This document shows positions 14,082 through 37,102 of a stretch of 64,000 bases of DNA, piece after piece. Under the pieces are notes generated by a model. The model did not search any database and was not told the DNA's origin. It saw only the letters and a list, made by a program, of their open reading frames with translations. Source of the DNA: a virus (lineage: Duplodnaviria; Caudoviricetes). The position numbers and the translations under genes are program-made. Within the stretch, counting starts at the first letter, position 1, and each line of letters begins with the position of its first letter. The stretch spans positions 1 through 64,000 of the IMG/VR virus record IMGVR_UViG_2887663082_000001. The stretch is one strand, 5' to 3'.

Positions 14082-14612
14082 ATGGAAAAAAACAAAGGAG
14101 TGCTTAAGTACCCTGCCCTCTTTTACTTAGCAGGCATAGTACCAATAGCATTAATTTTTTTGATTAACGCTACACTTCCCAACTCAGCCTTAATTCAATC
14201 TCTTTATTCTATCTCGATAGGACATGTACGGTCTTACTCAGAACAATTTCTTCAAGTAAGTTCTATCGCCTCGGCCTATACCAAAACAGCGCCGCTTTTT
14301 GTGTTCATATTGTATGTTCTATGCTGGCGAAAGATACGTTTATCGCCTGTCGATTTAGACGTTGCTAAATGGTGGAAACTACTGCCTTTACTCATACTGC
14401 TGATTATTGCTATTTTTGCCTTAACATATATTGGCGAGCAGAACATGACAACAACCAGTAAAAAAATAATTCGACTAGCATCAGGAAACCAAACTTTCCT
14501 ATTCGTATATTACATTGGTATGTTTGGTGTTAATTACTTCTTCACTTGGCTTATGGCGTTCTATATTCAAGTGTACGCAGAGTTTAAGAATAAAACTGGC
14601 AGCATCAAATAA
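14082..14612 (+). CDS. Immunity protein for a pore-forming colicin (A-type, multi-TM)
   Basis: About 176 aa with several hydrophobic segments; convergent with the colicin gene; SSIASAYTKTAP motif. Confidence 0.85.
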   Translation: MEKNKGVLKYPALFYLAGIVPIALIFLINATLPNSALIQSLYSISIGHVRSYSEQFLQVSSIASAYTKTAPLFVFILYVLCWRKIRLSPVDLDVAKWWKLLPLLILLIIAIFALTYIGEQNMTTTSKKIIRLASGNQTFLFVYYIGMFGVNYFFTWLMAFYIQVYAEFKNKTGSIK

Positions 14613-14613
14613 T

Positions 14614-14634
14614 AAAGCGGGCTAAGCCCGCTTT
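14614..14634. terminator. Bidirectional terminator between colicin and immunity genes
   Basis: aaagcgggc-taa-gcccgcttt. Confidence 0.8.
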
Positions 14635-14637
14635 CAA

Positions 14638-15756
14638 TTAATGTTTGAAGAGATTTATAACCTCTTTGTTCAAACGATCAGCCGCTGCTGCATCTATGAA
14701 TGAAGTAGCGTACGCTATAAATACTATAGCAAAATAGGAGACAACAACTGTCAGAGTCGCAGGTAGTGCGGCTGTTAGCAACCCAAGAATCGCAGTAACT
14801 ATTGCAATGGAGATGCTACCTGCAATCCCACTTAATACCATTGATTCAACTTCTAAACCAAGTGGTTTCCAGTTACCGGTTTGCACTCCCACTATAGCGG
14901 CTTCACGCACAGATTCTATTTTCAAAGCACGGTCTGCAACAGCAAATCCTTTGGATAGATTTTTCAGCTTATTAGAAATATCTGTCAGATTTAAGTTCCG
15001 CAAAGCGTTCGCAACTGCTGTTTTATCAGCAGCGCTAAGTTTGAGATTTGGATTCGCCATGAGACTGTTTAATGTCTTCATCGCATCATCAAAGCTTCTG
15101 ACCTTCTTGCCTTGGAAGTTTTTTATATCATTAGCGACTATTGCTGCAATATTTTTATACTGTGCAGAAAGTTTGGTTGTAACTTGCCCGCCTACATCAG
15201 CGATAATTGCACTCGCCCCAAGCAAAAGGCTTTTTTCATCCTTACTCATTTGATAACGTTTTACAATAGCCAATGCTTGATCATTCATCATCTGATCAGG
15301 ACGACTCGCGCCACCATCAACGTATACGGACTTATATGTGCCAGATTTGATATTGTAAATAACGCGATATTGTTCTTTGCCAAACCCGACAAAGTAGCCA
15401 ATCTCATTCGAATCTTTAGACCACGATTCACCTACAACAGGTTTACTTAGTGAACCTTTAGTTCCACTTGCCGAAGTCCAACCAGCGATGTTAGCAGTGA
15501 ATTTGGGAGAGCGACCGTTACCATTATTCACACCGCCAGTGGTCCCTGACGAAGTTACAGAGCTGCCTGAACCACTAAAAGTTATCCCCATCCCCCCAGA
15601 TATAGGATCATGAAAACCCGTAGCGGTCATGCCATCTGCGCCATTGCCTCCTGTACCGCCACCACTTCCAGATGTTCCATTAATATTGCCACTGGGCTGA
15701 CCACCACTATGCCCTAAACCTGTATTGCCCGGACCATTACCATCACCGCCACTCAT
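14638..15756 (-). CDS. Short pore-forming colicin-like bacteriocin (colicin N/A-type architecture)
   Basis: MSGGDGNGPG Gly-rich translocation region; AAGGAG RBS; pore domain IKNFQGKKVRSFDDAM...TGNWKPLGLEVES plus a hydrophobic hairpin; 372 aa. Confidence 0.92.
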   Translation of the reverse strand: MSGGDGNGPGNTGLGHSGGQPSGNINGTSGSGGGTGGNGADGMTATGFHDPISGGMGITFSGSGSSVTSSGTTGGVNNGNGRSPKFTANIAGWTSASGTKGSLSKPVVGESWSKDSNEIGYFVGFGKEQYRVIYNIKSGTYKSVYVDGGASRPDQMMNDQALAIVKRYQMSKDEKSLLLGASAIIADVGGQVTTKLSAQYKNIAAIVANDIKNFQGKKVRSFDDAMKTLNSLMANPNLKLSAADKTAVANALRNLNLTDISNKLKNLSKGFAVADRALKIESVREAAIVGVQTGNWKPLGLEVESMVLSGIAGSISIAIVTAILGLLTAALPATLTVVVSYFAIVFIAYATSFIDAAAADRLNKEVINLFKH

Positions 15757-16016
15757 GACTATCTCCTTGTTTGTGAATAAATGCATAAGCCTTATGAATT
15801 ACTCCTGAAAAACCACTCGGTCAAGACAACAAAACATACTAATTATTAAAAGTAGTGATTTATCACAAAGAAACTCAAAAATTTGTGGGGATGATGCGGG
15901 ATGGATACCTGACTGAAAAGAAGCAAATCTATCAAGAATTACGCAAAAAAATTGGTCATGAGCAACATAAAGAGTATTGTATCTACACGTTTTTGATACC
16001 TTTTTAACGGATAAAC

Positions 16017-16463
16017 ATGACAAAAATAATATTGATTGGAGTATTAACTTCTGCACTAACATCAACAGGTGCGCACGCAGCGATCACAAGCCATTGGACA
16101 TCAGGCGAATCAAAAGGAGTTCAGGCGTTCAATGTCAATGCAAAAAATGGCGTTGAATTAAGCGTTAATTGTGATTCATCAGGCAACAGAGATTTATTCA
16201 TTACTATTCCAGGCAAGCATGAATGGGTAACCCCTGATAAAAATAAAATCCAACTTCATTTAGGTGAAGACTCCTATCCCATCGAAGCATTAGGGACAAA
16301 CTACGGGGATTCATGGTGGTTCAACCTTTGGAAAGACGCAGCTGAATCTGATGAAAAAGTAATGACTATATTTGTCGACTCGAAGGAAACAGCAAGTGTC
16401 ACCTTGAAAGGTTTTAAACAACTTTATTCCTCTCAAGATGCTATGGATTGCTTGCGTCGTTAA
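16017..16463 (+). CDS. Hypothetical exported protein
   Basis: Signal peptide ending AHA; 148 aa; terminator-like hairpin at about 16466-16491. Confidence 0.7.
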   Translation: MTKIILIGVLTSALTSTGAHAAITSHWTSGESKGVQAFNVNAKNGVELSVNCDSSGNRDLFITIPGKHEWVTPDKNKIQLHLGEDSYPIEALGTNYGDSWWFNLWKDAAESDEKVMTIFVDSKETASVTLKGFKQLYSSQDAMDCLRR

Positions 16464-16491
16464 TTAAAAAGCCCCGGTTGGGGCTTATTTT

Positions 16492-16845
16492 TTAATCACT
16501 GCCGATATCCTTCATCCACTGAAGTCCAGCCATATGAACTCCAACCCCGCAAAGGAATGCAAAAATACCTATTACCCAGCTCGCGCCTGATGATTCGAAC
16601 AATGTCCCAATGCCATAGCCGATAGCCCCCCAAACAAGGCTCAGCAAGAACAGCAATGGCACGGCAATCACCTTAAACTGTAGGCCGATCATCAGTGCTG
16701 CAAACGTGCCACCACCTACCCACCAAGATTGCTTCATAAAACCGGCTGCAATGGCAATGATGAAAATCTCAGCAATCAATATTCCTGAATGTTCTTCGTT
16801 AAATTTGGCATTTGTCATGCCCTTTCTTACATCATCTGATGACAT
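16492..16845 (-). CDS. Hypothetical multi-pass membrane protein
   Basis: Three to four hydrophobic helices; likely start MSSDD at 16845 (GAGG upstream). Confidence 0.7.
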   Translation of the reverse strand: MSSDDVRKGMTNAKFNEEHSGILIAEIFIIAIAAGFMKQSWWVGGGTFAALMIGLQFKVIAVPLLFLLSLVWGAIGYGIGTLFESSGASWVIGIFAFLCGVGVHMAGLQWMKDIGSD

Positions 16846-16855
16846 ACATCCCTCG

Positions 16856-17701
16856 TTAATAAGCATTAAAATCAATCAAATCGTATTGAACAAGCCCTTC
16901 CCAAGACGGTATAGAGTTTGCTGGTTGCATGACGCAGGCTAAAACCATCATGTCATATTGATCTTTGTAGTATTGCTGAGTCGAGTCCAATGAACTCATT
17001 TTTGAATATTTTTGCCCACTAAAGATTGAAGAGGCATTTGCGGCGTCTTTTCTATTAGTCGAAACCGCCTTTAATATGTATTCAACATAGTCAGTCGAAA
17101 GACCTATGTTTTTGGCATGCTGGAGAGCAGATACAAGGTATTTTTCATCTTTAGTTGAAAGGTATCCATATGTATCTCCAGTAACGCCCATGTACTGCTC
17201 GCATGCCGTTTGGACCGACATTTTTCCTTTAGCTGGCTTACGATGTGCTGGTTTAGTTTCCTTTTCTGGAGGTGCAGCTGGTGGAGGAGCATTAGGATCT
17301 TCTGTGGTTATATTTTTTACGTCGAGTAGAAGTGGCGTATGTTCTTCTGCCTTTGTGGAGTAAAACAGATGCCCTATTGCAAACACCTCTTTGCCTTCGA
17401 ATGCTTTGGCTTGGTCATTTTCAACCGCTAACTGAATCTTGGTTTTATCACCATCTGGGGCGTTCTTTGCGCAGACTTCTTCGTTTTTGGCTTCAGTAAA
17501 GAGAACCCACTTTGGACCTGGCGCGGCTCCCGTATACGTCACTTGCCTTAAGACTCCGTGAATTGCCAAATAATCACCTGGAGACATACACTCAGCTTGC
17601 GCAGCGGCGGACAAACAAATCCCTAACACCCCAGCAATGAGAGGAGTTTTCAAATTGAAATCCTGTTTTGTAAATTTTCGTAATATGAAGGTATCAGACA
17701 C
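16856..17701 (-). CDS. Exported two-domain protein at the P1 sim position
   Basis: Signal peptide ending AQA; Pro-rich linker; divergent from c4 copy 2. Confidence 0.65.
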   Translation of the reverse strand: MSDTFILRKFTKQDFNLKTPLIAGVLGICLSAAAQAECMSPGDYLAIHGVLRQVTYTGAAPGPKWVLFTEAKNEEVCAKNAPDGDKTKIQLAVENDQAKAFEGKEVFAIGHLFYSTKAEEHTPLLLDVKNITTEDPNAPPPAAPPEKETKPAHRKPAKGKMSVQTACEQYMGVTGDTYGYLSTKDEKYLVSALQHAKNIGLSTDYVEYILKAVSTNRKDAANASSIFSGQKYSKMSSLDSTQQYYKDQYDMMVLACVMQPANSIPSWEGLVQYDLIDFNAY

Positions 17702-17854
17702 AAGATAGCGAAATTTTGATCTAACTCACTGAAATTACATTACCATTTTTAGAAAACAGCCTATATATTCACCAAAATACCACTAAAAACAGATAATACT
17801 AAATAATTTCTTTGTTTATCCCCGCATTTAATGTACTGTTTTTAGGCTGATGTG

Positions 17855-17884
17855 TTGACGCCTGCTGGTGGTTCAGAGTAAGGT
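17855..17884 (+). promoter_or_regulatory. Sigma70 promoter of the c4-icd-ant operon, copy 2
   Basis: TTGACG-18 nt-TAAGGT; operator-like ATACTAAAT at about 17795. Confidence 0.65.
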
Positions 17885-17996
17885 TTCGTTGTTGCAGCAA
17901 AATCTGTGACCGGGTGTGGAAACCCGAATCGTTTACTAGAGGGCACAACACGCGCCTGCGTGTTTTTTTGTGCCTATGCCTAACCGCATCAATATT

Positions 17997-18075
17997 ATGG
18001 TGGGGCGTATAGGGCCGACTTCGGTCGGGCCGGGTTCTCTAGTGACCGGTTTTCCACCCCTGTACGTCTCACCAC
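17997..18075 (+). ncRNA. c4: C4 antisense RNA, copy 2
   Basis: Stem ATGGTGGGGCGTATAGGG...CCCTGTACGTCTCACCA; loops CTCTAGTG and TTTTCCAC are complementary to flanking boxes. Confidence 0.85.
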
Positions 18076-18131
18076 CAGCGGTTGTGGAAAACCCAGTGGT
18101 GATTACTTTCATCACTAGAGAGGTTGCCACT

Positions 18132-18326
18132 ATGGCTACGATCCCTACCCCGTCTCACCCTCAGTTCATCTGGCGATTCTATTCCTGCCAGAAACGCTAC
18201 TGCTACATCGTCATTGCACCTAACGAACCTGAAGCTCGTTCCAAGCTTCCTGACGCTCCGTGTGTGTTTGTTGCCCGGTTCCCTTCTGACTGCGCCACTA
18301 TCTCCTACTGGAGGGCGCGCTCATGA
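18132..18326 (+). CDS. icd: Icd-like protein, copy 2
   Basis: MATIPTPSHPQFIWRFYSCQKR; paralog of 2121..2315. Confidence 0.85.
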   Translation: MATIPTPSHPQFIWRFYSCQKRYCYIVIAPNEPEARSKLPDAPCVFVARFPSDCATISYWRARS

Positions 18327-19321
18327 ACCAGTCTCTATTAACAAACTCGGAAATCCGGTCAGCAGTTGCAAAGCTCCACATCAGCGAACCTGGTGGCACC
18401 ACAGTTCTGGCCAACCACTTCATGATAACGAAAAGCCTTTATGCACGTCCTAACAAACAGGCCTTACATCGCCAACTGGAAAACGAGATCGTTGCATTTA
18501 TGGCATATGAAGAGCACAAGAAAAATCAGGGGAAAGAGATGGTACGCATGACAACAGAAATTGCAGCACCGGTAATTTGCGAGGTAGAGATCACTACGGA
18601 TAGTGAGGGACGTTTTAACCTTAATGCTTTGCACAAAGCTAGCGGCTTAGGTAATCACAAAAAGCCCAGTGAGTGGTTGCGTTCAAAACAAGCAAGAGAA
18701 TTGGTCAAGGAACTTGAATCTAATTTATCAAAAAATAGCCAGAGCGGGAATTCCCGCCCTGCTCAAAAAACAATCATGATTATTAATGGAGGCACTGCGC
18801 CAGGCACCTTCGCCCATGAACTCCTCGCCATCGAGTACGCCGGTTGGATCTCACCGGCTTTCCGGCTGCAGGTGAATCAGACGTTCCTGGACTACCGCAC
18901 CGGCAAGCTGATGCGACCGGCTGCCGAACGTGCCGATTCAACCACACAGGACTTACTGGCTATGCGCGTTCTCGATCTTTCTCAGGAGCTGCTCAATGAA
19001 GTTCGGGAGAATCGCCGCTTACGTGCTGAACAAACTCACCCCACATATCAGCAGTCGACTAATTATTCCTTGTCAGATCATGAACTGCTGCGCGAACGTG
19101 ATGAGCTGGCCGAACGTCTGGGCCAAAGCCGTAACTACGCTACTATCGAGGCTGTTGAGCGCCGGTTAGAGCGTGAATTCGGATGGCACCGGCTGCGCAA
19201 CTGGTGCCTCAGGAATAACGTAGAGCCTCTGGTGCTGCCTAAATTTCAGTGTGTGAACGCATGGCCGCGCGGCGCGTGGATGGCGATGTATGGGGTAGAT
19301 CTGGAACAACTCTTTGGGTAA
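18323..19321 (+). CDS. ant: Ant1/Ant2 antirepressor (KilA-N), copy 2
   Basis: 332 aa; internal Met before the KilA-N domain could give an in-frame Ant2 product as in P1. Confidence 0.85.
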   Translation: MNQSLLTNSEIRSAVAKLHISEPGGTTVLANHFMITKSLYARPNKQALHRQLENEIVAFMAYEEHKKNQGKEMVRMTTEIAAPVICEVEITTDSEGRFNLNALHKASGLGNHKKPSEWLRSKQARELVKELESNLSKNSQSGNSRPAQKTIMIINGGTAPGTFAHELLAIEYAGWISPAFRLQVNQTFLDYRTGKLMRPAAERADSTTQDLLAMRVLDLSQELLNEVRENRRLRAEQTHPTYQQSTNYSLSDHELLRERDELAERLGQSRNYATIEAVERRLEREFGWHRLRNWCLRNNVEPLVLPKFQCVNAWPRGAWMAMYGVDLEQLFG

Positions 19322-19403
19322 GAAATTTAGCAGAGTGCAAAGATGCACTCTGCTTCTTTAACGCCTGCTATCACAAGGTTTCAGGTGAACACACCAGAAA
19401 TTT

Positions 19404-19798
19404 AAGGTGGGCAGTTTCATAAAAGGTGTACAGTTTCATAAATCTTCAAATCCTTTTCGTGAAAAGGTGGGTATCTTCATAAACAGAGCCATACCTCTGA
19501 GAAAAGGTGACCACTTTCATAAAGAAGTGACCTTGTAACTTACATATATTGAGCTGTTTTCAACCAAGGTGACCACGTAACAACCAAAAAGGTGCGTGGT
19601 TTCATAAGTGGATATAAACACAGTTATGAAAGTGGTCACCTTTGTCGTGTTTTTTATGAAAGTACCCACCAGCCACCAGAAAACCCCCCCATATTTTTAT
19701 GAAACTGGTCACCTTTTTATGATTCTGCACACCCTAAACAAAAAAGGTGAGCACCCGTTATGAAAGTGCCCACCTTTTTTATGAATGTGACTACCTTT
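19404..19798. repeat. incA-like copy-control iteron array
   Basis: About 11 copies of TTATGAAAGTGGTCACCTT-like units, about 5 on - then about 6 on +, downstream of repA. Confidence 0.9.
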
Positions 19799-19833
19799 TC
19801 AGCCCAAAGAATGAATCAGCTATCCCTTTCTTT

Positions 19834-20745
19834 TTACTCGCCTTTTCCTTTCGGTGAATCCAATTTTAGGTTCGGCTTACGGGCAAGTATAGTGAACTGA
19901 ATTTCGCGCCCCTTTTTCACTTCCTTGTACTCCAGATATCCGATCTTCTCCAAATCGGCCAAGGCCTTTCTGATGGTCTGGTTCTGTGTCTTCACCGGAG
20001 AATCCAACAATAAGCGCTCACGGAAGCGTTTCATCGTCATAAACAAAGGGCCGGTATTCGATGGCAGACTTTCCAGATAGATGTACAGCGCCTGGGCGGC
20101 TTCTTTACGGGAGAGGTTAGACAGGGGTTTAAGGCTAAGCAGAATTTTATGGTCCCAGCGATATAGCTCCCAGAGATCCTTATCACCCACCAGCTCTACA
20201 ACATCCTCATTTTCATCAAGCTTTGCCTTCTGGACCAAGTGGCTAACCATATTTTTTGTGCCATCTTTACTGGTAAAGCCAAGTGTGACGCTCGCGATAT
20301 TAAAAAGTGATTCCTTCAGCCTGGTGCGGGCGCGCCCATTAAGGTCGGTCGGACGCAGGCCGCACATGCGACCGAACTCTGAAAATGAAAGGGTAATCTT
20401 CTCGCTTTCGAAGCCGTATTTAGAGAAAGCTGATACTATGCCTATCCAGGCTTTAAAATCAGTGGACATATTGAGCTTCGCGCCCTGTATGCGGATCTTC
20501 GTGTAGCCCTCGCGGCGGGCGATTTCCAGCGTCGATAGCTCTTCTGAAGCATCAATCATGAAGTCCCGCTTACCGCGTTCCTTGGGCGCGACCGGCGTGA
20601 ACACGCTCAGGCGCAATAATGCCCTTGGTTGAACGCTTTTATCATCGCTTGGCACCAGCATGTAGTCTTTACCAGTTTCACGGTGAACCACGAACGGATG
20701 TTCAGGGTTTAAGCTATCATCTGTCTGATTTTCAGTCGGTTCCAT
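19834..20745 (-). CDS. repA: Plasmid replication initiator RepA (P1/RepFIB-like)
   Basis: SVQPRALLRLSVFTP, EGYTKIRIQGAKLNMSTDFKAWIGI and KEAAQALYIYLESLP motifs; flanked by iterons. Confidence 0.92.
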   Translation of the reverse strand: MEPTENQTDDSLNPEHPFVVHRETGKDYMLVPSDDKSVQPRALLRLSVFTPVAPKERGKRDFMIDASEELSTLEIARREGYTKIRIQGAKLNMSTDFKAWIGIVSAFSKYGFESEKITLSFSEFGRMCGLRPTDLNGRARTRLKESLFNIASVTLGFTSKDGTKNMVSHLVQKAKLDENEDVVELVGDKDLWELYRWDHKILLSLKPLSNLSRKEAAQALYIYLESLPSNTGPLFMTMKRFRERLLLDSPVKTQNQTIRKALADLEKIGYLEYKEVKKGREIQFTILARKPNLKLDSPKGKGE

Positions 20746-20883
20746 CGTCTACACTCAGATTTTCCCGCTTACACACCTGTTGATAACAATGTGCATAAAC
20801 GGTGATTAAAATTTTCATCATTCGCAAACAAAAGCAAAGGATGTTTTTGATTTTTAATGAGTATTCTAAGTTACTCACAAGTC

Positions 20884-21120
20884 TGTGGATAAAATCACAA
20901 AAAATTATGAAAGTGTCCACCCTTGAGTTATGAAAGTGTCCACCAAAATTATGAAACTGTCCACTATTTTTATGAAAGTACCCACTTTTTTTATGAAAGT
21001 AGTCACCCGAAGTGCTGTTTTCGTTTTTTAAATCATGGGTTTACAGGCGCGGTGATCTTTATTGATCTGTATATTGATCTATATATTGATCTAAAAGACT
21101 ATGATCTACGGTGTGGATAA
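20884..21120. promoter_or_regulatory. Iteron replication origin (oriR-like)
   Basis: DnaA boxes TGTGGATAA at 20884 and 21112; five iterons at 20905, 20928, 20949, 20970 and 20991; five GATC sites at 21054, 21064, 21076, 21088 and 21103. Confidence 0.92.
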
Positions 21121-21154
21121 TAATAAAAGGGCACCCCGAAGAGTGCCGTATGTT

Positions 21155-21646
21155 TTAGGCTACCTGAGCCAGCTTACCGCCAAAGCGTTCAAAAGCCGAA
21201 AGTAAAACCTCAATCTTATGCTCACACTGCCCGTAACCCGCGCCTGGGAAGCTTGCCCAGATGTTAGAACATTTCTCAATGGCACGGCTAATGTAACCGT
21301 CCTCGATGTCCTGTACGGCGCGACGCTCCTTCAGCAGTTGCATACAAAGCTTGTCCTGGCTCTCCGGACTGAAATCTTTCAGGCCCAATTGTTCTTTGTA
21401 AGTCGGCCAGAATTTATAGAGCACCTGATAACCGCCGGAAGCAGTCGATCTCTGCCCTGCCTTGTTAAACACCTTGCCCGGACGCCCGTTGGCAAATGGA
21501 TGATCGCTATAGTCAGTAAAGACCTCAGGTTTGCCATCGCTGCCGGTAACAATCACGTCATAGCCTTCGTTCGTTGTAAGTGGATGCTCCAGCGTACCTT
21601 CAGAGAAACGGATTGTTTTCATAAAAGCTTGGATGTTCGGATTCAT
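21155..21646 (-). CDS. Endolysin, lambda R-type transglycosylase
   Basis: IRFSEGT, GYDVIVTG, STASGGYQ, DFSPESQD and WASFPGAGYGQ motifs. Confidence 0.92.
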   Translation of the reverse strand: MNPNIQAFMKTIRFSEGTLEHPLTTNEGYDVIVTGSDGKPEVFTDYSDHPFANGRPGKVFNKAGQRSTASGGYQVLYKFWPTYKEQLGLKDFSPESQDKLCMQLLKERRAVQDIEDGYISRAIEKCSNIWASFPGAGYGQCEHKIEVLLSAFERFGGKLAQVA

Positions 21647-21740
21647 GTCTACTCCAGATGTAACTTATGGAAAAATGGAAGCAGACAAGTCAGTAGTAAT
21701 CTCACAAGGACGCCGAGAGGTGTCCTTTTTCTTTTGATGG

Positions 21741-21760
21741 ATGCTACAGAAAGTTACATC
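21741..21760 (-). promoter_or_regulatory. Late promoter of the endolysin gene
   Basis: ATGTAACTTT-ctg-TAGCAT on the - strand. Confidence 0.65.
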
Positions 21761-21809
21761 CTGGCGGGGAGAAAAAAACAGGCGATCAAACGCCGCCTGC
21801 CATCAATCA

Positions 21810-25477: not shown

Positions 25478-26102
25478 CTGGGGCTCCCAGTTTATTGAGC
25501 TGATCCTGAAGTTGGACGGTAACTGCCTTAGCCGTCGCCAGGCGTGTCTGTGCGTCCTCGACGCGCCGGGAGAGGTCTGATTTTTGCTTCGTAACGGTAT
25601 CTACTGTTTGCTGAAGGCTGTTTACGTTCTTAGTGAGTTCATCCCGGCGGTCTTTTGCTTCTTTGAGCCGCTGAACATTGGACTTTACTGCTGGCCGAGT
25701 GCTGGATGTATCAATGACGCGCTTTGCTTTTTTTGCGAGGCTGTCACTAAATTTTTTCGCGTTCTGCTTAACCGTTGTAGCGAGGCTATCGGCAATTTTA
25801 GAGAACGTATCTGCATGCACAGCAGGAATTGGTTTGCCGTTTAATTTAAAGCCAGAAAAGTCCCCGGAGTCGTTGATCTCGGCCTGCAGCTCTTGCCCGT
25901 CAACGAAACGTAGTGATGCGGTTTTCACACTGAGGCCATTTTTTTTGGATGCTCTGTTACTGGCCGTAACGTTCTCAACGGTAAGACCTGATTTTTTAAG
26001 GGCGTCGATAAATGGCTTCAGGCCTTTCTCAGTTACCTGGTCAAAATTAACCTGAGCATAATTTTTGCCATTCTTGGAACTCAAACTGTTAGAGGCTGGC
26101 AT
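25470..26102 (-). CDS. hdf: Hdf
   Basis: YAQVNFDQVTEKGLK and KSNVQRLKEAK; between lydB and darA. Confidence 0.8.
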   Translation of the reverse strand: MPASNSLSSKNGKNYAQVNFDQVTEKGLKPFIDALKKSGLTVENVTASNRASKKNGLSVKTASLRFVDGQELQAEINDSGDFSGFKLNGKPIPAVHADTFSKIADSLATTVKQNAKKFSDSLAKKAKRVIDTSSTRPAVKSNVQRLKEAKDRRDELTKNVNSLQQTVDTVTKQKSDLSRRVEDAQTRLATAKAVTVQLQDQLNKLGAPDA

Positions 26103-26536
26103 TAGTTCGCACTCCCAAGGTTAATTTCAAACACTTTCTGAGCATCAAGTTGCAGGGGAAATATTCGGTAAAGTGGGTTGTAGAATGAATCACCATGTAG
26201 AATTTTCACATTGATTATCCACTGCCCCGACGGAAGGATAAGACGATCGAGAGGGATATCGAGATACTCGCAGTTCTCTCCCTTAGAGGCGTGTTCAAGA
26301 GTACGCCGGTTGAAGGCGACAACAGTTGTCGGGCATCGCTTATCTCTGAGGGTAAACTCGATAGTCGCACCAACCAGTCGAGATGATTTAACGTTAAAGT
26401 AAACAGGAACGCGCAGATGCCCTTGCTCTACTTTGTGATCGCCGACGCAGAGGTTTTTTACCGTCGCGCGTTGTAATGCCCAGCGGTCGGCAGCCATCGT
26501 GATGCTGGCTCCCGCGACCAAAATCCAAGCAAACAT
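26102..26536 (-). CDS. lydB: LydB-like lysis regulator
   Basis: N-terminal TM, DRW motif and NPLYRIFP; synteny. Confidence 0.75.
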   Translation of the reverse strand: MFAWILVAGASITMAADRWALQRATVKNLCVGDHKVEQGHLRVPVYFNVKSSRLVGATIEFTLRDKRCPTTVVAFNRRTLEHASKGENCEYLDIPLDRLILPSGQWIINVKILHGDSFYNPLYRIFPLQLDAQKVFEINLGSAN

Positions 26537-26862
26537 TATTTGCCTCCCTTGGTGAAGATTTGAGTGATTATTCTTGCAACAGATTCGGTGTTTATCTTTC
26601 TGGCCATGTGGACGACCTCATAACCATTGTTGCTGGAGAGCAGAACGGAAAAGTAGATAATTGGCTCATCGAATTTCTGGTGCCGCCCAACGTAATAGGC
26701 CATTAGCCCTGCTGTTACCGCATATGAGATCGTCGTCAGAAAATCTAAGACTGTTCCCTTAACCTTCCCCTCTCTCAGTTCCATCAGGAAAACTCCTGTC
26801 CCGCTGAGGATGGAAAGGCCGACGGCGATGGCTATCGGCAAGATGTTGTTGCTGATCAGCAC
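26536..26862 (-). CDS. lydA: LydA-like holin
   Basis: 108 aa; two to three TM segments; SNNG motif; GTG start; first gene after a late promoter. Confidence 0.78.
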   Translation of the reverse strand: MLISNNILPIAIAVGLSILSGTGVFLMELREGKVKGTVLDFLTTISYAVTAGLMAYYVGRHQKFDEPIIYFSVLLSSNNGYEVVHMARKINTESVARIITQIFTKGGK

Positions 26863-26895: not shown

Positions 26896-26914
26896 AGTGT
26901 ATTGAAAGTTACAT
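26896..26914 (-). promoter_or_regulatory. Late promoter of the lyd-dar operon
   Basis: ATGTAACTTT-caa-TACACT. Confidence 0.7.
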
Positions 26915-26950
26915 TTGGAGGGAGGGGGGAATCTTCACTTGGGTGCCTTC

Positions 26951-28702: not shown

Positions 28703-28703
28703 A

Positions 28704-29738: not shown

Positions 29739-30205
29739 TAGCCCACCATCGTGTTGATATCGGTGACAGTGACATAGGATTTACCGAGGTAAAGGCTGTC
29801 CTGTTGGCAACACATAACAAGACATGCTTTACCCAGGTTGTCGCAGACCACCAGAGTGTTAAAAGGATAGCTGACGTTCTCTTCCAGCTTTGAGGAGTCC
29901 AGTTCGGCACGCAGCGTGATTATTCCCGAATCGTAAGACGGGGTGAATTTTTTGTTCGAGTTGCCGCTTGGATCGTCTTCACTGGTCGATGTTGCTACCT
30001 GAGAAGTGAGATCGGACAGCTCAAAGTCTGCCGGGATATCGGCGATGTCATATATCCCTGTCGGATTATTCGTGACGAGATTTGACGTGCCAAAGACGGC
30101 AGATGTCAGCTCGAAACGTTCTCCAATGCCTATGGACGATTCCGCACGGCGTTGGTAGTAATAATCCAGCAGTTTGACCTTGGATAATTGGTCAGAAACA
30201 TTCAT
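29738..30205 (-). CDS. Tail fibre protein R
   Basis: LLDYYYQRRAESSIG; upstream of S; own late promoter at 30279-30297 (ATGTAACTTT-cag-TAGACT). Confidence 0.75.
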   Translation of the reverse strand: MNVSDQLSKVKLLDYYYQRRAESSIGIGERFELTSAVFGTSNLVTNNPTGIYDIADIPADFELSDLTSQVATSTSEDDPSGNSNKKFTPSYDSGIITLRAELDSSKLEENVSYPFNTLVVCDNLGKACLVMCCQQDSLYLGKSYVTVTDINTMVG

Positions 30206-30315
30206 TCAGAGCAGCTTCCTCATAGATAGCCCCGGCGTTAGGTTGGGCCAACGCCGGGGGATTTTGATTCCTGCCATGAGTCTACTGAAAGTTACATTTG
30301 GCCTGGGTGCGGTTT

Positions 30316-31428
30316 TTAATCCTCCTCGGTTAATTCGTCAGGAGTCGTATCGAGCACGTGGCCATCGTGAGTGGTTCGGTCATATACCGGCGTGATATCT
30401 GCCCAGTCCGGGTCTATCGCCTTGCCTTCAGCAACACCACTCAGTTGAATTTGTTGCTCAATGGCTACGCCATCCCCACCCTCTTCGGCAGTCCATTTCT
30501 CCGGAACGACATCGATGCTGACGTGATGGCCAGAATCCTCAATATCGCGGATTTTGCTTCGAACATTGGTATCTGGAACTTCAAAGTCGAGACCATAATG
30601 CTCATCGAGGATGGCGCCATCATGCCCGGTGCGATCAAAGCGTCTAATGCCACCAGGAACCGAAGATGTTGATTCGGCCAGCAGCGGTGTCATTTCTGAA
30701 CCTATGCTGGTCAGCACCGGCACGTCGACATGTTCACTACCAGCGTAAGTTGCTTCTGAAGTTGCGTAAGCGTGCCATGCGATCTCTCTTGCTTCATCGA
30801 CCTGAAGCTTAAGCATCAGCTGCATGTCATCAAAAACAATGTGTAACGGCAGCAGCGGCTGAACAACCTGCTTGAATTTTGCCAGAGCTATCTCGGTTAG
30901 CTCTTCAGTGGTCTTTGCCTCGCCGTAAATCAGGATCAACTTCTGGAGGTCAATGATCGAGACGCTTATCACGCCTCTACTGGTGAGAAAGAGCTCGCCA
31001 AAGGCCGCCCCAATCGATTCCAGGTTATTCTCAGCAATTAGCTGCGTGCAATAGGGATATTTTTCGAGGTCCACCGGCGCATATAACGGCTGCCAGGTAA
31101 TAGGGATGCCGTTAAACTCGCGATAGAACGTCTGGGTTATAGGCTGCGACGTGCCTTTAAAGTGAATTTCGTCCAGACGCTGCTGCAGCAACATAGGTTT
31201 GCTGGAGGCATCCGATACACGGATGGTGAAGAATTTCCCCATCTCCGCTATGCGGGTATCAAGATCCTCATCAGCCATGGTGAAAAATGATTTTCTGGCT
31301 GAAATACGCGAGAGAATGGGCTCTACTGCCACCTCAAAAATATCTTGAATGATGTCGGCGAGGCTACTGTACATTTCCGACAAACGCTTAGAGGGCGTGA
31401 GCTGGTTTCTGAACCAACCGCTTTGCAT
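30316..31428 (-). CDS. Baseplate protein (P1 gp16-like)
   Basis: WFRNQLTP and LQQRLDEIHFKGT; synteny; acidic C-terminal tail. Confidence 0.7.
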   Translation of the reverse strand: MQSGWFRNQLTPSKRLSEMYSSLADIIQDIFEVAVEPILSRISARKSFFTMADEDLDTRIAEMGKFFTIRVSDASSKPMLLQQRLDEIHFKGTSQPITQTFYREFNGIPITWQPLYAPVDLEKYPYCTQLIAENNLESIGAAFGELFLTSRGVISVSIIDLQKLILIYGEAKTTEELTEIALAKFKQVVQPLLPLHIVFDDMQLMLKLQVDEAREIAWHAYATSEATYAGSEHVDVPVLTSIGSEMTPLLAESTSSVPGGIRRFDRTGHDGAILDEHYGLDFEVPDTNVRSKIRDIEDSGHHVSIDVVPEKWTAEEGGDGVAIEQQIQLSGVAEGKAIDPDWADITPVYDRTTHDGHVLDTTPDELTEED

Positions 31429-32852
31429 TAGTTATCCTCCGGAGCCGGGAAAGTCGAGCCTTCGACATCCAGGTAAACGAAATCATTGAACCCGTTGGAG
31501 TCCTGCATATCGTTTACCTCGATCTCGAATTTAGTGAAGTAGCCCTGCTGGTCGATGAAGGACCAAAGATCCTTAACCTTAATGAGCTCGTAGCTGCCGA
31601 GATCGTCAGGGTCGAAGTATTTTGAATCCTTGCCAAAACGCTCCTCCAGAGCAGTTTTTAGCTCGCAGAGAACGACGGAAAGCGTCAGGCTTTTGGGTAT
31701 CGTACCGGTAAGCGTGATGGTAAATGGTTTCTCGGCGGCATCGACGTAGACATAGCGCTTATTTAGAGGGTTAGGAACGTTTTGCAGCGTCGTCATTATC
31801 AGCTCTTTGAGCTCGGCCTGTGTTTTCCCAGGGAACCAGCCGGAGATAAAGATCCGATTAATGAAACTTACGTCTGAATGACCGGCGAGCTTTTCCTGTT
31901 GCTCTTCACCCCATGCGGCCAGCCAGGTTGTCGCTGGAAGGTTACGCTTCAGATAATACGTATAGTCTTCTGACCAGCACACCTGGTTATCGTAAGACAG
32001 GTAGTACATGGCGCGGTTTCGGGTTGCTTCGATCGATTCGATATCGGTCCCGCCGGTGATCGAGGTGTCTGTCTTCGCAGTGATGTAATCAGCTAAATAC
32101 GCATAATCATTGGATGGCGTTAAGTCCTGGTTCGCCAGCAGCGTCGTATCGCCATTACTGCACCAGACACGTAGTTTTATCGTTGCACCAGACGGAGGGA
32201 TCATCCCGATAGTCCCGTCGCCAAATCGTATGCCTAATTGGTCAGTTGGCTTATAGAACTCCACGTAGACTTTGCTGGTCGAGGTGGCCATGCGGAACTG
32301 AGTGCTTTTGGTCCACTGAGTTTCAATGTCATTGATGGTCATCAGAACATCAACCTTGTAGCAGACCTCTGTCAGCGCACGGCTGAGGAGCACGGAATAG
32401 AACGGCTGCTCGCCGGTGACGGTCGTAGTGATTTCGACAATCTCCATTTGAGTTAGTCCAACCGTCGCAGTTCCCTCTACCGGTACCGTCACAACATCAT
32501 CGGTAAGGTATGGATACTGGTCGTCTGATAAGAATGTCGTGTACTGTGGCAAGGACATCGTTTGAGTTGACGTATTGGTAAGGATCGCCCTTCCCTTGCT
32601 GGGTGTTACGCGAGAACCAACATAACTTCGGTCCTCTGATGCGGCCAGGATGCTGCCTCGTTTGGTCGCGGTAGAGATAAACCCTTCCATGAGTGCAGCA
32701 GATGCGAATTGCTGACAGCGGTAAACCATTTGAGAGATAAACGTGGCCAGCATCGTGACGAACTGTGAACCAGCAAACTGGGACCACCAGCTGTTGCCCT
32801 CGATGAGCTTGGTCAGCTTATCTTTGATTGCGGTAAGGTCGAGTACTGCCAT
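31428..32852 (-). CDS. bplA: Baseplate wedge protein
   Basis: 474 aa; EGFISTAT, IRFGDGTIG and GGTDIESIE motifs (T4 gp6/J-like). Confidence 0.82.
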   Translation of the reverse strand: MAVLDLTAIKDKLTKLIEGNSWWSQFAGSQFVTMLATFISQMVYRCQQFASAALMEGFISTATKRGSILAASEDRSYVGSRVTPSKGRAILTNTSTQTMSLPQYTTFLSDDQYPYLTDDVVTVPVEGTATVGLTQMEIVEITTTVTGEQPFYSVLLSRALTEVCYKVDVLMTINDIETQWTKSTQFRMATSTSKVYVEFYKPTDQLGIRFGDGTIGMIPPSGATIKLRVWCSNGDTTLLANQDLTPSNDYAYLADYITAKTDTSITGGTDIESIEATRNRAMYYLSYDNQVCWSEDYTYYLKRNLPATTWLAAWGEEQQEKLAGHSDVSFINRIFISGWFPGKTQAELKELIMTTLQNVPNPLNKRYVYVDAAEKPFTITLTGTIPKSLTLSVVLCELKTALEERFGKDSKYFDPDDLGSYELIKVKDLWSFIDQQGYFTKFEIEVNDMQDSNGFNDFVYLDVEGSTFPAPEDN

Positions 32853-33199
32853 TAATTTGATACTCCTGATGTTATCGTGCCTTCGGGAATGCGGATGGTG
32901 ATAACTCCGAGGTCAAACTCTTGACCGGCGAAAGATACCCCTTTGATTTTGAGTGAGGGAACATCTTCAGAGAGCTTCTGCAATAGCCGACTTTCTATAG
33001 CCACCTGAACGCGATCAGAACCGATGGGATCGTGTTTAAACTCGGAAAGAATATTTCCCCATGCAGGAAGTCCATAGACCGAGCCCACCGGCGTATCTAT
33101 CCACTCTTTTAAAGCTGCTGCCTTTGCTTCGAGCTCGGTGTTGTATGTGCGCAATCCGGTTGACGTGAGCGACATTAAGTAGTCGATTTCGTTATTCAT
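32852..33199 (-). CDS. pmgA: PmgA (gp25-like baseplate protein)
   Basis: EWIDTPVGSVYGLPAWGN; late promoter at 33263-33281. Confidence 0.72.
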   Translation of the reverse strand: MNNEIDYLMSLTSTGLRTYNTELEAKAAALKEWIDTPVGSVYGLPAWGNILSEFKHDPIGSDRVQVAIESRLLQKLSEDVPSLKIKGVSFAGQEFDLGVITIRIPEGTITSGVSN

Positions 33200-33472
33200 T
33201 GTTTACCCTGAACGGTAATGTGAAGCGCCAGTTCTGGCGCGGGCCAGCTAAGTTCTTGAGTGATTGTATGGATAGTTACTTTTGAGCGTGGAAATTAAAT
33301 GAATGGTTGCAGCGGAAACGGTAAAGAAGTTGAGGAAGTTGCATTGCTTGGTTACTTCGCCCTCGATCCGCCAGAGTGGGTGGAAATCACTTCCCTTTCG
33401 TCTGCTGTCGGGCTAAACATTTTTGAATAACTGCATAGGTAAAAAAGGGCCTCAAAGAAGCCCATATGACTA

Positions 33473-33730
33473 TTACCCAGTTTTGAATCCCGGCTTGCCG
33501 TTAGCAGCGCGCCAGACCTTGATTGTTTCGATAATCCCTTTTGTAGAATTATCTGCTCCAGGTTTTGGACGATAAATTAGGTCCCATTTATCTGGGTGCT
33601 CAATCAGCTGACCAAATTCATACATAGCAGAGCTATGATCTGCCTCCGATGGAAAGTCAACATTCCTTATCCTATTGATAAAGTCTATGAACTCACTTTC
33701 AGTATAATATTCTAGCTTTTTATCAGCCAT
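33473..33730 (-). CDS. Orphan DNase-colicin immunity protein
   Basis: YTESEF...EHPDKWDLIYRP...WRAANGKPGFK; 85 aa. Confidence 0.92.
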   Translation of the reverse strand: MADKKLEYYTESEFIDFINRIRNVDFPSEADHSSAMYEFGQLIEHPDKWDLIYRPKPGADNSTKGIIETIKVWRAANGKPGFKTG

Positions 33731-33731
33731 A

Positions 33732-34120
33732 TTACTTACCTTTATGAATTTCAATATGTCGTTTCGAAGTAACAGCATTCAGATTATCTTGGTCATAAAT
33801 CTCGCTATTTTCTGAAATAGGTTGTTTATGATGTAACTCAACTTTTACTCTTTTTCCGACTGATACTTGAATACTTACAGTCGGTAAATATCCTTTCTTC
33901 ATTAGTTAATTTCATCTGGATGAAACTGCTTGCTCAAAGTTGGGTTTGCAGCCACTGCTTTCCATAACGCCCGGCGGAACGAATCAAACCTACTGAATGA
34001 TATACCACGTAGCTTGTCAGCGATCTTGCTTGGGATAGGTGCACTCTGCCCAATACTCGCACTGCCAAACCGACTAACAATGCTGAACAAATCGGCAAAT
34101 CCAGCATCATCAGCGTTGAA
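33732..34120 (-). pseudogene. Orphan, frameshifted HNH toxin C-terminal fragment
   Basis: APIPSKIADKLRG...FHPDEIN* then a shifted frame MKKGYLPTV...VELHHKQPISE...NLNAVTSKRHIEIHKGK*; paralog of the toxin tip at 34522-34850. Confidence 0.88.
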
Positions 34121-34262
34121 AGCACCACTCGTCAATTTAGCTAAGAATTAAAATGACTTACTCCCCATCCTAAAGGGTGGGGAGCTTAAGGGTTATAACC
34201 CGACTAAACTTATATTTTCCACTAATTAAATTCCTCGTTAGAGGATAGAAATTAGCGCTTAA

Positions 34263-34520
34263 CTAGTTAGTCTTAAAACCAGGTTTACCATTTGCAGTTC
34301 GCCACGCTTTTACCGTTTTAGTAACACCAATGGGAGAGTTATCAGCACCAGGTTCTGGGTGATAGATTAGATCCCATCCATCTGGGTGTTCAGTTAACCT
34401 TCCGAATTCATAAATTGCATTATCATGCTCTTCTTCTGTTGGAAAATCAGCTTTCTTAATCTTATCGACGAAAGCGATGAATTCGGCTTCTGTAAAGTCT
34501 TCGAATTTTTTCTGGTCCAT
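34263..34520 (-). CDS. Cognate DNase-colicin immunity protein
   Basis: Starts 1 nt after the toxin stop; FTEAEF...EHPDGWDLIYHP...NGKPGFK. Confidence 0.93.
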   Translation of the reverse strand: MDQKKFEDFTEAEFIAFVDKIKKADFPTEEEHDNAIYEFGRLTEHPDGWDLIYHPEPGADNSPIGVTKTVKAWRTANGKPGFKTN

Positions 34521-34521
34521 T

Positions 34522-36969
34522 TTATTTTCCCTTATGAATTTCGATGTGACGTTTTGGAGTCAATGCATTGAGATTATCCATATTATATACATCTCCACCT
34601 TCCGAAATGGCCTTATTATGATGTAGCTCTACTTTTACACGTTTACCAACAGAATCCCTAAATTTAACTGTCGGTGCACGACCTAATTTCATGCGAACTA
34701 AATCATCGGCACTAAACTGCTTACTCAAAGTAGGATCATCAGCCACTGCTTTCCATAACGCCCGACGGAAGGAATCAAAGCTACTGAATGATTTACCTCG
34801 TAGCTTGTCAGCGATCTGACTTGGGATAGGGGCACCGTTATTAACACCAGCGCTACCTAGCCAGTTATCCCCTACCTGTTGACCTTTCCCCGTTGCTTGT
34901 CCCGGTAAATTACGTGGACTACGAAACATAATATACAGGGGTTTTAATCCCGATCCATCCGGGAACACCAGAATGATATCCCGGAAATCTGGATCATCTG
35001 CCGCCGGGGATACTGTTGTTTTTAACGTCTCAGGTGCCGAAGATTGATCGCCGGTGTGGAGAATAACTTCTGGAAGGGGTACCGGACCTTCTAGAACAAG
35101 CTGACCGTTAACACCCGGAGCATTTGCTGGACTGATTAAAATGGTCTGAGCTGGGGCTCCTGGCATTGCTGGCAGAGCGTAGCTATAGTATCCGGTTGAT
35201 TTGTCTACAACAGCCCGCACGACAGGAACCTTACCTGGCACCGGTGTACGGACTAGCTGTGCTTCAAGTGTACCGTTATCTTGCAATACCAACTGGCCAC
35301 GGATAGGCATATCCACGGTTGCATGAGTGTCAGCAGCTTTATTCAGTTGTGAAATCGCCGGAAGAGAAAGTGCGTCCGTTGGTATCAACGCACTAATATC
35401 GCGGCCGGGCACTTGGTCACTACCTTTACCAACATCAGGAGAATATAGAAGGCCACCAATTGTGGCAGCGACAGGTCCGGCAAGGCTTGCTGTTGCGATA
35501 CCACGCAGTTCAGCCAGCGCCGCACTCATAGCAGACCAGACTGATGCCGCCAGCTTACTATCAAGTGCAATCCCACCAACAGAAGCTACAGACCAGTTGA
35601 GTGGTGCACTTCCTACAGGGGTACCTGTTGCCACGCCTCGAACGGACTGAATGCCTGATGTTTTCAGCCTGTCAGCAACTGCCTGACGGTCCTGAAGAGC
35701 TTTAGCTTTTGCAGCAGCAGCACGCGCATCATCTGCTGCTTTTTTCGCTGCCGCAGCGGCAGCTTCTGCTTCCTGTCGTTTTTTCGTCGCAGCAGCTAGA
35801 GCCGCATCGGCTGCTGTTTTCTGTTTTTTAGCATTTTGCAGCGCAGTATTTGCCTGAACGAGTTGCTTATTCAGACTGTCACGACTTGTGGTCGCTGTGC
35901 TGATTTCTGTCTGCTTGGTCTTAATACTGTTCTTGGTAGTTGTCAGAAAACCTTGTGCGTTAAAAAACAGGCGATCCTGACCTGGCACATTTGCATACTG
36001 AAGAGTTGCTTTAACCTGATCTTCTGCTTTCTTCAACTGGATGTTCAGTGCTGCCAGTTCTGACTGTTTTGTCTTTAAGGACTGATTTGCTGTGTTAACT
36101 TTGGCGGTCAGGGTATTCACATTTCCCTGAGCAGCCACAACTGCCGCTTGTGCAGTCTCAATGCTTTTCTTTGCATCAAATTCTGCCTTAGTCATACCAG
36201 AAGCCAGTGCTTTCGCTTCTTCCTCTTTCAGTGCCCGTGCGGCCGCTTCCGCTTTAGCTTTCGCAGCAGCATCTTGGCGTTGTTTAACTCCTTGGTTCCA
36301 GGCTTGTGTCAACTCTGGCACTTCCCGATCTTGGGAATATTTAACTGTACGGGTACCGTGACCGTAGGTTCCATCCGTTGTGGTGTCGTACCAGGTATAA
36401 TTTTTCATGACCTTCCCGCCACTCAACCAGTACCCTTCGGGCATACTGCCCTGAAGAGTGCTCAGCACCAGGCCAAGAGAAGTTGTACTTAAGTAAGTAG
36501 CATTCTGTCCGAGGGTCGCAGAATTGCCAACATTTGGGATATTTTTATCGGTACGTTTAATACCTGTTTCAATATCGCCGACAGCAACTGGACCAACTGC
36601 TGTATTTACCCCCAAAACCAGCCCGCCAAGTCCTACCCGTTTAGCCTGATCGGCATTCAATCCACTAATGGAAATGCTTAGCGTACCGGAAGCTGAAACA
36701 CTATTAATCTGTAATTTGGCCGCAGGATTGATGGCGATTGCAGCCAGTATCAGGTTATTGAGTTTTTGGCGAACATTCTTATCACTATTAATTTTATTAA
36801 GTTGCTCCTGTACAGGCGTGAGAGCTGCCGTTGAACCGGTGCTACTACCGCCAGAACTTGCGCCACCCCCGTTGCCTTGCATACCGCCACCAGGAGCTGG
36901 TTCAGAGCCTCTTTCTGAACTCCAACTAGTCCCGTCTCCGGAGCTACCACCATAGTTAAAACCAGGCAT
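34522..36969 (-). CDS. HNH nuclease bacteriocin (colicin/klebicin/S-pyocin type)
   Basis: MPGFNYGG...WSSERG Gly-rich N-terminus; Ala/Lys coiled coil; S-pyocin-like domain; HNH tip VELHH...VYNMDNLNALTPKRHIEIH. Confidence 0.93.
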   Translation of the reverse strand: MPGFNYGGSSGDGTSWSSERGSEPAPGGGMQGNGGGASSGGSSTGSTAALTPVQEQLNKINSDKNVRQKLNNLILAAIAINPAAKLQINSVSASGTLSISISGLNADQAKRVGLGGLVLGVNTAVGPVAVGDIETGIKRTDKNIPNVGNSATLGQNATYLSTTSLGLVLSTLQGSMPEGYWLSGGKVMKNYTWYDTTTDGTYGHGTRTVKYSQDREVPELTQAWNQGVKQRQDAAAKAKAEAAARALKEEEAKALASGMTKAEFDAKKSIETAQAAVVAAQGNVNTLTAKVNTANQSLKTKQSELAALNIQLKKAEDQVKATLQYANVPGQDRLFFNAQGFLTTTKNSIKTKQTEISTATTSRDSLNKQLVQANTALQNAKKQKTAADAALAAATKKRQEAEAAAAAAKKAADDARAAAAKAKALQDRQAVADRLKTSGIQSVRGVATGTPVGSAPLNWSVASVGGIALDSKLAASVWSAMSAALAELRGIATASLAGPVAATIGGLLYSPDVGKGSDQVPGRDISALIPTDALSLPAISQLNKAADTHATVDMPIRGQLVLQDNGTLEAQLVRTPVPGKVPVVRAVVDKSTGYYSYALPAMPGAPAQTILISPANAPGVNGQLVLEGPVPLPEVILHTGDQSSAPETLKTTVSPAADDPDFRDIILVFPDGSGLKPLYIMFRSPRNLPGQATGKGQQVGDNWLGSAGVNNGAPIPSQIADKLRGKSFSSFDSFRRALWKAVADDPTLSKQFSADDLVRMKLGRAPTVKFRDSVGKRVKVELHHNKAISEGGDVYNMDNLNALTPKRHIEIHKGK

Positions 36970-37086
36970 TTTTTTCTCCTTATTTTTGTTCTCTATTACA
37001 AATTCTCATGAGAAAACTGGTGTGCGGTTCATCGCTTCATGAACATCTGTTCGATGGTTATAAGAGGTGTTCCGTTACACCAACAA

Positions 37087-37102
37087 CTGTATGCATATAC
37101 AG
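37087..37102. promoter_or_regulatory. LexA (SOS) box upstream of the nuclease bacteriocin
   Basis: CTGTATGCATATACAG, near-consensus CTG-N10-CAG. Confidence 0.9.

Follow-up and report, generated by a model that had tools for sequence, protein, structure and literature searches.

A P1/D6-type phage-plasmid with two bacteriocin–immunity cassettes, no colicin lysis gene and a phage lysis kit of its own

Introduction

How does a bacteriocin that comes without a release gene leave the cell that makes it? The question is raised by a 64,000-nucleotide stretch of viral DNA (the window), which comprises bases 1-64000 of a linear IMG/VR contig of 96,760 base pairs (bp) (IMGVR_UViG_2887663082_000001; CheckV completeness 96%), and in which a pore-forming and a nuclease bacteriocin, each with immunity, sit in a phage-plasmid of the P1/D6 type. 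Enterobacterial pathogens commonly carry phage-plasmids, which are usually regarded as cryptic plasmids. A first-pass annotation of the window had described a phage-plasmid with two mechanistically different bacteriocin–immunity modules, and we found both, apparently intact and with every item within a few bases of its assigned position. Our overall reading, which we consider somewhat probable, is that both toxins would be set free by the late lysis genes of the phage-plasmid itself. If this is true, prophage induction would kill neighbours not susceptible to the phage, and the element would be carried more stably thanks to its immunity genes.

Nedialkova reportedly described in 2015 the release of colicin Ib by temperate-phage lysis. 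The general idea that some colicins lacking release proteins exit in this way, on which the first-pass annotation had drawn, is indeed published for colicin Ib of Salmonella, a toxin that has no release gene and relies for its export on lysis by phage holin and endolysin (Spriewald 2020, PMC7374059; PMC5536347). Bacteriocin–immunity cassettes have also been described on phage-plasmids, namely as the telocins of Klebsiella N15-like telomere phages, reported in 2025 (PMC12042878). In that work, experiments showed that TelA kills Klebsiella and that ImmA protects, both proteins were present in uninduced mid-log lysogens, and some telomere phages carried two toxins (PMC12042878).

Two bacteriocin cassettes in separate cargo islands

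The pore-former cassette lies in a cargo island of ~3.9 kilobases (kb) (island 1, 13859-17786, 38-42% G+C), which stands in place of 1.5 kb of unrelated genes in a Citrobacter relative, blastn homology to the latter ending at 13858 and resuming at 17787. The toxin gene (14638-15786, minus strand) encodes a bacteriocin of the TelA family with 382 amino acids (aa) if read from the ATG at 15786 and 372 aa if read from the ATG at 15756, the latter being the likelier start because an AAGGAG Shine-Dalgarno sequence precedes it and the source gene call is 372 aa long. The product matches the Pfam Colicin family (PF01024, E 8e-15) and, among structures in the PDB, the pore domains of colicins A (E 7e-49), S4 (7e-48), N (3e-47) and B (4e-44); its hydrophobic C-terminal segment aligns with TelA, the hydrophobic hairpin region is kept, and its N-terminus, MSGGDGNG..., resembles those of E colicins and of three other family members. 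Convergent to this gene runs that of a multi-pass inner-membrane immunity protein of the Cai/ImmA (colicin A) type (14076-14612, plus strand, probable start ATG 14082; Pfam Colicin_im, PF03857, E 4.5e-8), with promoter-like sites at 14023-14083, and a bidirectional terminator hairpin (14614-14634) is common to the two. The Pfam, PDB and ImmA matches agree on a pore-forming colicin with immunity at 14082-15756, as had been proposed.

The nuclease cassette occupies a second island of ~4.0 kb (island 2, 33285-37279), located between the terminator of a sit-like gene, whose hairpin (37271-37308) marks the upstream edge of the island, and a backbone late-promoter motif (33263-33282, minus strand) that restarts the pmgA-like/baseplate operon. 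Homology to two relatives breaks at 33284 and 37280, and the genes that flank the island abut in 6 relatives. Its main gene (34522-36969, minus strand) encodes an 815-aa chimeric bacteriocin with Pyocin_S (E 5e-32) and Col-Pyo_DNase (E 5e-52) domains. Residues 1-436 form an import half of the colicin A type, which shows 47-50% identity to colicin A-type proteins and includes the colicin A TolB-binding peptide (3iax_B, E 7e-9), and residues ~440-815 form a Pyocin_S domain plus HNH deoxyribonuclease (DNase) of the klebicin B/G type. The match to the klebicin G structure spans residues 355-815 (E 4e-148), identity to klebicin B over residues 432-815 is 65%, the DNase structures of E7, E9 and S2 are matched at E values of about 1e-42 to 1e-46, and the HNH residues H783, H784, N799, H808 and H812 do not vary when the protein is aligned with ten relatives. 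The gene directly downstream, on the same strand and with its start codon 1 nucleotide (nt) from the toxin stop codon, encodes the cognate DNase immunity protein, Im1 (34263-34520; Pfam Colicin_Pyocin, PF01320, E 2e-31). Judging from the Pfam and structural matches and the invariant catalytic residues, the earlier assignment of an HNH nuclease bacteriocin with immunity to 34263-36969 was correct.

Overlooked at first reading was the adjoining orphan region (33473-34135, minus strand), which holds a displaced DNase C-terminal domain and a second immunity gene. The DNase remnant (33732-34135; Col-Pyo_DNase E 1e-16, partial) is frameshifted near 33902, its two frames matching toxin residues 704-757 (72%) and 760-815 (68%), and the orphan immunity gene Im2 (33473-33778; Colicin_Pyocin E 6e-28) is intact, its product being 62% identical to Im1; the terminator of the nuclease operon follows at 33447-33463 on the same strand. 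Such an array of an orphan tip and its immunity gene fits recombinational replacement of the toxic tip. A larger array of this kind occurs on another IMG/VR contig (locus positions 10001-12734), which holds a DNase bacteriocin gene and, behind it, three immunity genes that alternate with two orphan DNase tips.

The first-pass annotation had placed both toxins within the virion backbone. This holds for island 2, which lies beside the baseplate operon, but not for island 1, whose neighbours are a FinO/ProQ-like gene on one side and the immI/RepB region on the other.

Lysis genes of the replicon

Neither cassette comes with a colicin-type lysis gene. A search of the entire 96,760-bp record for the colicin lysis family PF02402 gave no candidate at E<=10, and lists of open reading frames (ORFs) down to 25 aa, combined with a lipobox scan, gave no small lipoprotein beside either toxin cassette; the scan found the spanin lipoprotein only. 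The original statement that neither toxin has a recognisable colicin lysis lipoprotein is thus supported by both scans, and the search of the entire record was equally negative for a lysis gene elsewhere on the replicon, which the first-pass annotation had named as a discovery that would speak against its proposal. One ORF (15799-16065, minus strand) with a lipobox-like LSC was considered as a lysis gene and rejected, as it is Cys-rich, overlaps the promoter spacer and gives no PF02402 signal.

What the replicon does have is a complete holin/endolysin/spanin set, in agreement with the earlier description. A holin gene (26536-26862; PHROG holin, E 2e-28) is followed by that of a LydB-like lysis protein (26102-26536; PHROG lysis-determining protein, E 6e-35), the endolysin is encoded at 21155-21646 (PHROG endolysin, E 1e-55; annotated as GH104 in a relative), and an i-spanin gene (51934-52383) overlaps that of an o-spanin lipoprotein (51759-52028/52097), all of them on the minus strand. 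The late-promoter-like motif AAWGTAACTWTnnATACnnT has 8 matches against 1.4 expected and precedes the holin, tail and baseplate operons and, more weakly, the endolysin gene. Its sites before lysis and virion operons are 26896-26915 (minus strand, 0 mismatches, before the holin operon), 30279-30298, 33263-33282, 44603-44622 and 53442-53461, and the weaker site before the endolysin gene is 21741-21760 (3 mismatches). The motif was not found before either toxin, which indicates that the toxins are not late genes.

Besides the pore-former cassette, island 1 holds three genes (16017-17701), encoding a secreted 148-aa protein, a glycine-rich 127-aa membrane protein and a 281-aa DUF4431 protein. The first of these belongs to PHROG 3429 and has ~30% identical homologues in the P1-like Cronobacter phage JK004 and in an Escherichia coli phage. 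Pfam, NCBIfam and PADLOC assigned no function to the three genes, and in other genomes they are not linked to the toxin; we considered them as a release system and rejected them on these two grounds.

Identity of the replicon

Judging from its genes, the element is a P1/D6-type phage-plasmid and an essentially complete replicon. It combines, on one replicon, the features that define the P1/D6 group, namely a C1-type repressor with dispersed operators, a Cre-type recombinase, replication and partition genes, and a myovirus virion together with lysis genes. The RepB-type initiator is encoded at 19834-20745, ParA at 41135-41761 and the Cre-like recombinase at 67647-68684 of the record; the Cre-like gene adjoins that of a 286-aa C1 homologue (69492-70352 of the record), which is only 26% identical to the C1 proteins of P1, P7, SJ46 and RCS47 (E 4e-21). 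The N15-type telomere phages that carry telocins are a different class: the backbone here is of the P1/D6 type and likeness to TelA is confined to the cassette, although no search for a protelomerase was made.

Two Citrobacter freundii plasmids of 97-99 kb share the backbone in syntenic order, with DNA ~77-80% identical, and their annotations list portal, head-processing, baseplate, tail-fibre, holin, ddrA, odaE, Icd-like, RepB and ParA genes or proteins. The record has no terminal repeats; its two ends land 1.4 kb apart on a circular Citrobacter plasmid, which indicates that the genome is essentially whole. These relatives and the colicin A-like parts of the toxins point to Citrobacter or a neighbouring enterobacterial genus as the probable host.

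Both islands are absent at the syntenic site from 6 relatives, and neither toxin domain occurs anywhere in the four nearest relatives. This pattern marks the cassettes as lineage-specific cargo.

Regulation of the two toxin genes

The two toxin genes differ in their upstream regions. Before the nuclease gene lies a promoter of the sequence TTGACA-18-TAGTAT with a LexA box (37085-37139, minus strand), the LexA 20-mer itself occupying 37085-37104. Its core, CTGT-N8-ACAG (37087-37102), is the sole one in the window and in the whole record; ~0.8 chance occurrences of the bare core are expected. We regard the box as meaningful because the 20-mer is near-consensus, with 3 positions off, and is placed just after the -10 element, at a distance of 5 nt and ~115 nt before the nuclease start; the near-consensus box noted in the first-pass annotation stands.

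No LexA-like site with <=2 core mismatches was found upstream of the pore-former (15757-16020). Instead, the divergent spacer between the pore-former and the gene starting at 16017 holds a C1-type operator-like site (15825-15850, plus strand, 27.9 bits) with the invariant core ATACTAATT, so that here, too, the initial description of a pore-former without an intact LexA box and with a phage-wide operator-like motif was accurate. This asymmetric motif, ACAGAnAATACTAATT, has 18 sites at >=14 bits against 0.33 in shuffled sequences; almost all of them fall in intergenic DNA, the space between the Cre-like and C1 genes has two, and the sites are conserved at syntenic positions in the Citrobacter relative. 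A C1 homologue beside a Cre-like gene and ~18 asymmetric intergenic motifs of ~17-20 bp recall the dispersed C1 operators of P1, and by their arrangement the ACAGAnAATACTAATT sites are putative operators that show the pattern of P1's C1 operators with another sequence. Even with up to 3 mismatches allowed, the P1 operator consensus, ATTGCTCTAATAAATTT, was not found in the window, which indicates that this phage uses a different operator. Another candidate, the palindrome GTGATAAATCAC before the pore-former, was considered as a late-promoter or regulator box and rejected, as it is unique in the window.

Among pore-former homologues, TelA has a LexA-like box and a plasmid-borne homologue has a near-perfect one. 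An alignment of the DNA upstream of five pore-former homologues placed no decayed LexA box convincingly. The boxes in TelA and the plasmid-borne homologue, set beside the operator here, suggest that control was exchanged from SOS to the phage repressor, and from the sequences compared such an exchange at the pore-former can reasonably be inferred.

A proposed release route and its rivals

In the scheme that we favour, the phage-plasmid would have acquired two self-contained bacteriocin–immunity cassettes at sites that spare phage transcription. In the lysogen the C1 operator would probably keep the pore-former silent, its inner-membrane immunity protein being expressed from promoters of its own; upon induction, C1 repression would be lost and the pore-former switched on early. 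The nuclease toxin would be made from its LexA-repressed promoter, translationally coupled to Im1, and would enter target cells by Tol-dependent import, and Im2 probably makes the host immune to a nuclease of a second type. Lysis of the cell by the late holin, endolysin and spanins would come next and release both toxins, which would kill non-immune neighbours, cells resistant to infection by the phage among them, and the immunity genes would protect lysogens and so reward carriage. Given that the replicon has no colicin release lipoprotein, phage lysis is most likely what frees the toxins, and in our analysis release by this route is plausible.

A more ambitious version of this scheme can be put forward tentatively, although we incline somewhat against it. 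In this version, the pore-former was captured and its ancestral SOS control swapped for a master-repressor operator, so that the toxin became an early step of induction and the lysis cassette its release device, with the SOS-controlled nuclease as a separate trigger; bacteriocin delivery would then be built into the lytic programme, rather than being passive cargo.

Several considerations weigh against the favoured scheme. P1 couples SOS to induction via a LexA site at coi (PMC4713147). Here, the nuclease is LexA-controlled, yet no LexA box was found at the c1/coi region or elsewhere in the record besides the nuclease promoter, so that SOS expression of the nuclease is not visibly coupled to phage lysis. 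Nuclease made during the SOS response could stay trapped unless the phage has another way of sensing damage or a different prophage lyses the cell; its release would require a link that is not visible here, spontaneous induction or other prophages, and this is the weaker part of the argument. For the pore-former, the operator at 15825-15850 may serve the divergent 148-aa gene instead, and a simple sigma-70 scan found no promoter for either gene in their shared spacer. The presence of TelA in uninduced lysogens makes constitutive expression of the pore-former possible as well. Finally, the record is a linear contig of 96% CheckV completeness, and a lysis gene could possibly reside on another replicon of the host.

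The rival that survives best takes up the second of these points and, although we think it doubtful, deserves to be set out. According to it, the operator belongs to the divergent gene for the secreted 148-aa protein, the pore-former is constitutive or otherwise controlled, and only the reading of the cassettes as cargo holds. The position of the operator in a shared divergent spacer and the lack of a clear sigma-70 promoter for the toxin are in line with this, as are the homologues of the 148-aa protein in JK004 and another coliphage, which mark it as cargo of a phage type. The distances argue otherwise: the site lies 167 nt from the start of the 148-aa gene but 39-69 nt from that of the toxin (69 nt to the ATG at 15756), and other operator-like sites are mostly 15-55 nt from a gene start. 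Moreover, the island bears an operator even though it lies outside the conserved backbone.

Less probable, and in our view unlikely, is that ordinary lysogens produce both toxins in small amounts and that these exit without the lysis genes of this phage, through leakage, vesicles, other prophages or the lysis protein of another plasmid, the phage-plasmid being a vehicle only. This would agree with the detection of TelA and ImmA in uninduced mid-log lysogens, with the freeing of colicin Ib by unrelated prophages of the same cell, and with a DNase promoter that is LexA-controlled in a phage with no other LexA site. Against it, the operator beside the pore-former points to a toxin gene that is repressed in the lysogen, a complete lysis kit is present on the replicon itself, and large colicin-type proteins are not known to be exported other than by lysis or quasi-lysis. 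That one or both cassettes are inactive relics, or that a phage and a bacteriocin plasmid were wrongly joined into this contig during assembly, is very improbable: the orphan DNase tip is frameshifted and the source is a virus-catalogue record without terminal repeats, but neither full-length gene is interrupted, both retain their catalytic and hydrophobic-hairpin regions as well as their ribosome sites, promoters and terminators, P1-type backbone lies on both sides of each island with junctions in intergenic spacers, and the phage's own operator is found inside island 1.

Comparison with known systems

Release by the phage's own lysis genes, which we continue to prefer, can be set beside several systems that share parts of this arrangement. 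The named proteins closest to those of the pore-former cassette are TelA and ImmA of the Klebsiella phage NAR688; the pore-former is 45% identical to TelA over residues 95-381, and its immunity protein is 45% identical to ImmA; the convergent layout, a phage that persists as a plasmid and the lack of a lysis gene are likewise common to this element and the telocins. The vehicles differ, being a P1/D6-type myovirus-like phage-plasmid here and an N15-type linear telomere phage there. TelA starts with a TonB-box-like EETLTVV, whereas the pore-former here starts like an E colicin; a C1-type operator is found here where TelA has a LexA-like box; and the second toxin here is an HNH DNase, a class not among TelA-TelE.

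With klebicins B and G and colicins E2, E7 and E9, the nuclease toxin has in common the Pyocin_S plus HNH DNase half, the adjacent Im gene and the LexA-controlled promoter, and it differs from them in its colicin A-like import half, the lack of a lysis gene and its location inside a phage tail operon. Colicin A (pColA of Citrobacter freundii / E. coli) contributes likeness to both toxins: the N-terminal 436 residues of the nuclease toxin match its translocation and receptor region, and the killing domain of the pore-former is of the colicin A class, with a different import region. Colicin A itself, however, is a single pore-former on a small plasmid, whereas here its import half is fused to a DNase. 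In the colicin Ib system, a conjugative plasmid carries the toxin, and the phages that lyse the cell are prophages apart from it; in the present element a single replicon has both the toxin and the lysis genes, and one of the toxins appears tied to the phage repressor. Relative to P1, the operator sequence differs (ACAGAnAATACTAATT in place of ATTGCTCTAATAAATTT), as does the c1/coi region, where no LexA site was found here.

A literature search found no report of a bacteriocin in an element of the P1/D6 type. A report of phage-associated klebicins dates from 2005 and is cited in PMC5536347. Since bacteriocin–immunity cassettes on phage-plasmids are already known as telocins, the novelty is smaller than the first-pass annotation implied; what is new is the P1/D6 vehicle, an HNH nuclease bacteriocin in a phage genome, the colicin A–klebicin chimera and the apparent wiring to the repressor. 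The telocin strategy is thereby extended to a second phage family. The related pore-former cassette, together with the nuclease toxin, suggests that arming with bacteriocins arose independently in the P1/D6 family, and one toxin may have been wired to the phage repressor. With the genes for toxin, regulator and lysis together on one small replicon, the element also offers an experimental system for how colicins that lack a release gene leave the cell.

Related toxins in other genomes

The database results that follow rest on the best matches listed per search. Among 50,697 deposited phage genomes, the pore-former matched five Klebsiella phages only, NAR688 included, and the nuclease toxin had no match. 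Single-protein queries of IMG/VR gave no close relative of either toxin among the matches listed, and a profile query gave four contigs with relatives of the DNase, none of which (0/4) shares P1-type backbone genes.

Elsewhere, relatives of both toxins sit near phage lysis genes, in a C. freundii lambdoid prophage and in a lysis cassette of Cedecea. In the C. freundii prophage (locus 5201-11656), a 47%-identical TelA-family pore-former with an immunity gene lies between the RusA/Q region and the DinI gene; holin and lysozyme genes are found ~4.5 kb from the pore-former, and no LexA box precedes the toxin. TelA-family members are therefore known in N15-type, P1-type and lambdoid phages, that is, at least three unrelated types of temperate phage carry the family. 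Among the matches listed, the full-length protein most similar to the nuclease toxin (49%) is encoded on the Cedecea neteri chromosome (locus 6290-12743), directly after genes for a CI/S24-type repressor, an N-like protein, a small ORF, a phage lysozyme, an Rz-type protein and a lipase-like protein, and the locus has a LexA-like box at 6097. The Cedecea cassette looks like a domesticated phage lysis cassette that serves as a release device for the bacteriocin. A pore-former family member is also present on a small metagenomic Rep3 plasmid (locus 8701-10944), its start codon lying 63 nt downstream of a near-perfect LexA box; just past its immunity gene, this plasmid encodes a 124-aa TolA-domain protein that could act as a Tol decoy.

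Other genes of the window

Two Ant/KilA-N-type antirepressor-like genes (1100-1915, minus strand, and 18323-19321, plus strand) belong to the same PHROG families, and an operator site is found near each; the pair fits two immI-type cassettes in one genome. A gene at 3499-10296 (minus strand), located between two operator sites, encodes a 2265-aa protein with methyltransferase and SNF2-helicase regions. This protein gives weak PADLOC matches to DrmD/DpdE-type helicases, and the annotation of the Citrobacter relative describes it as SNF2-related.

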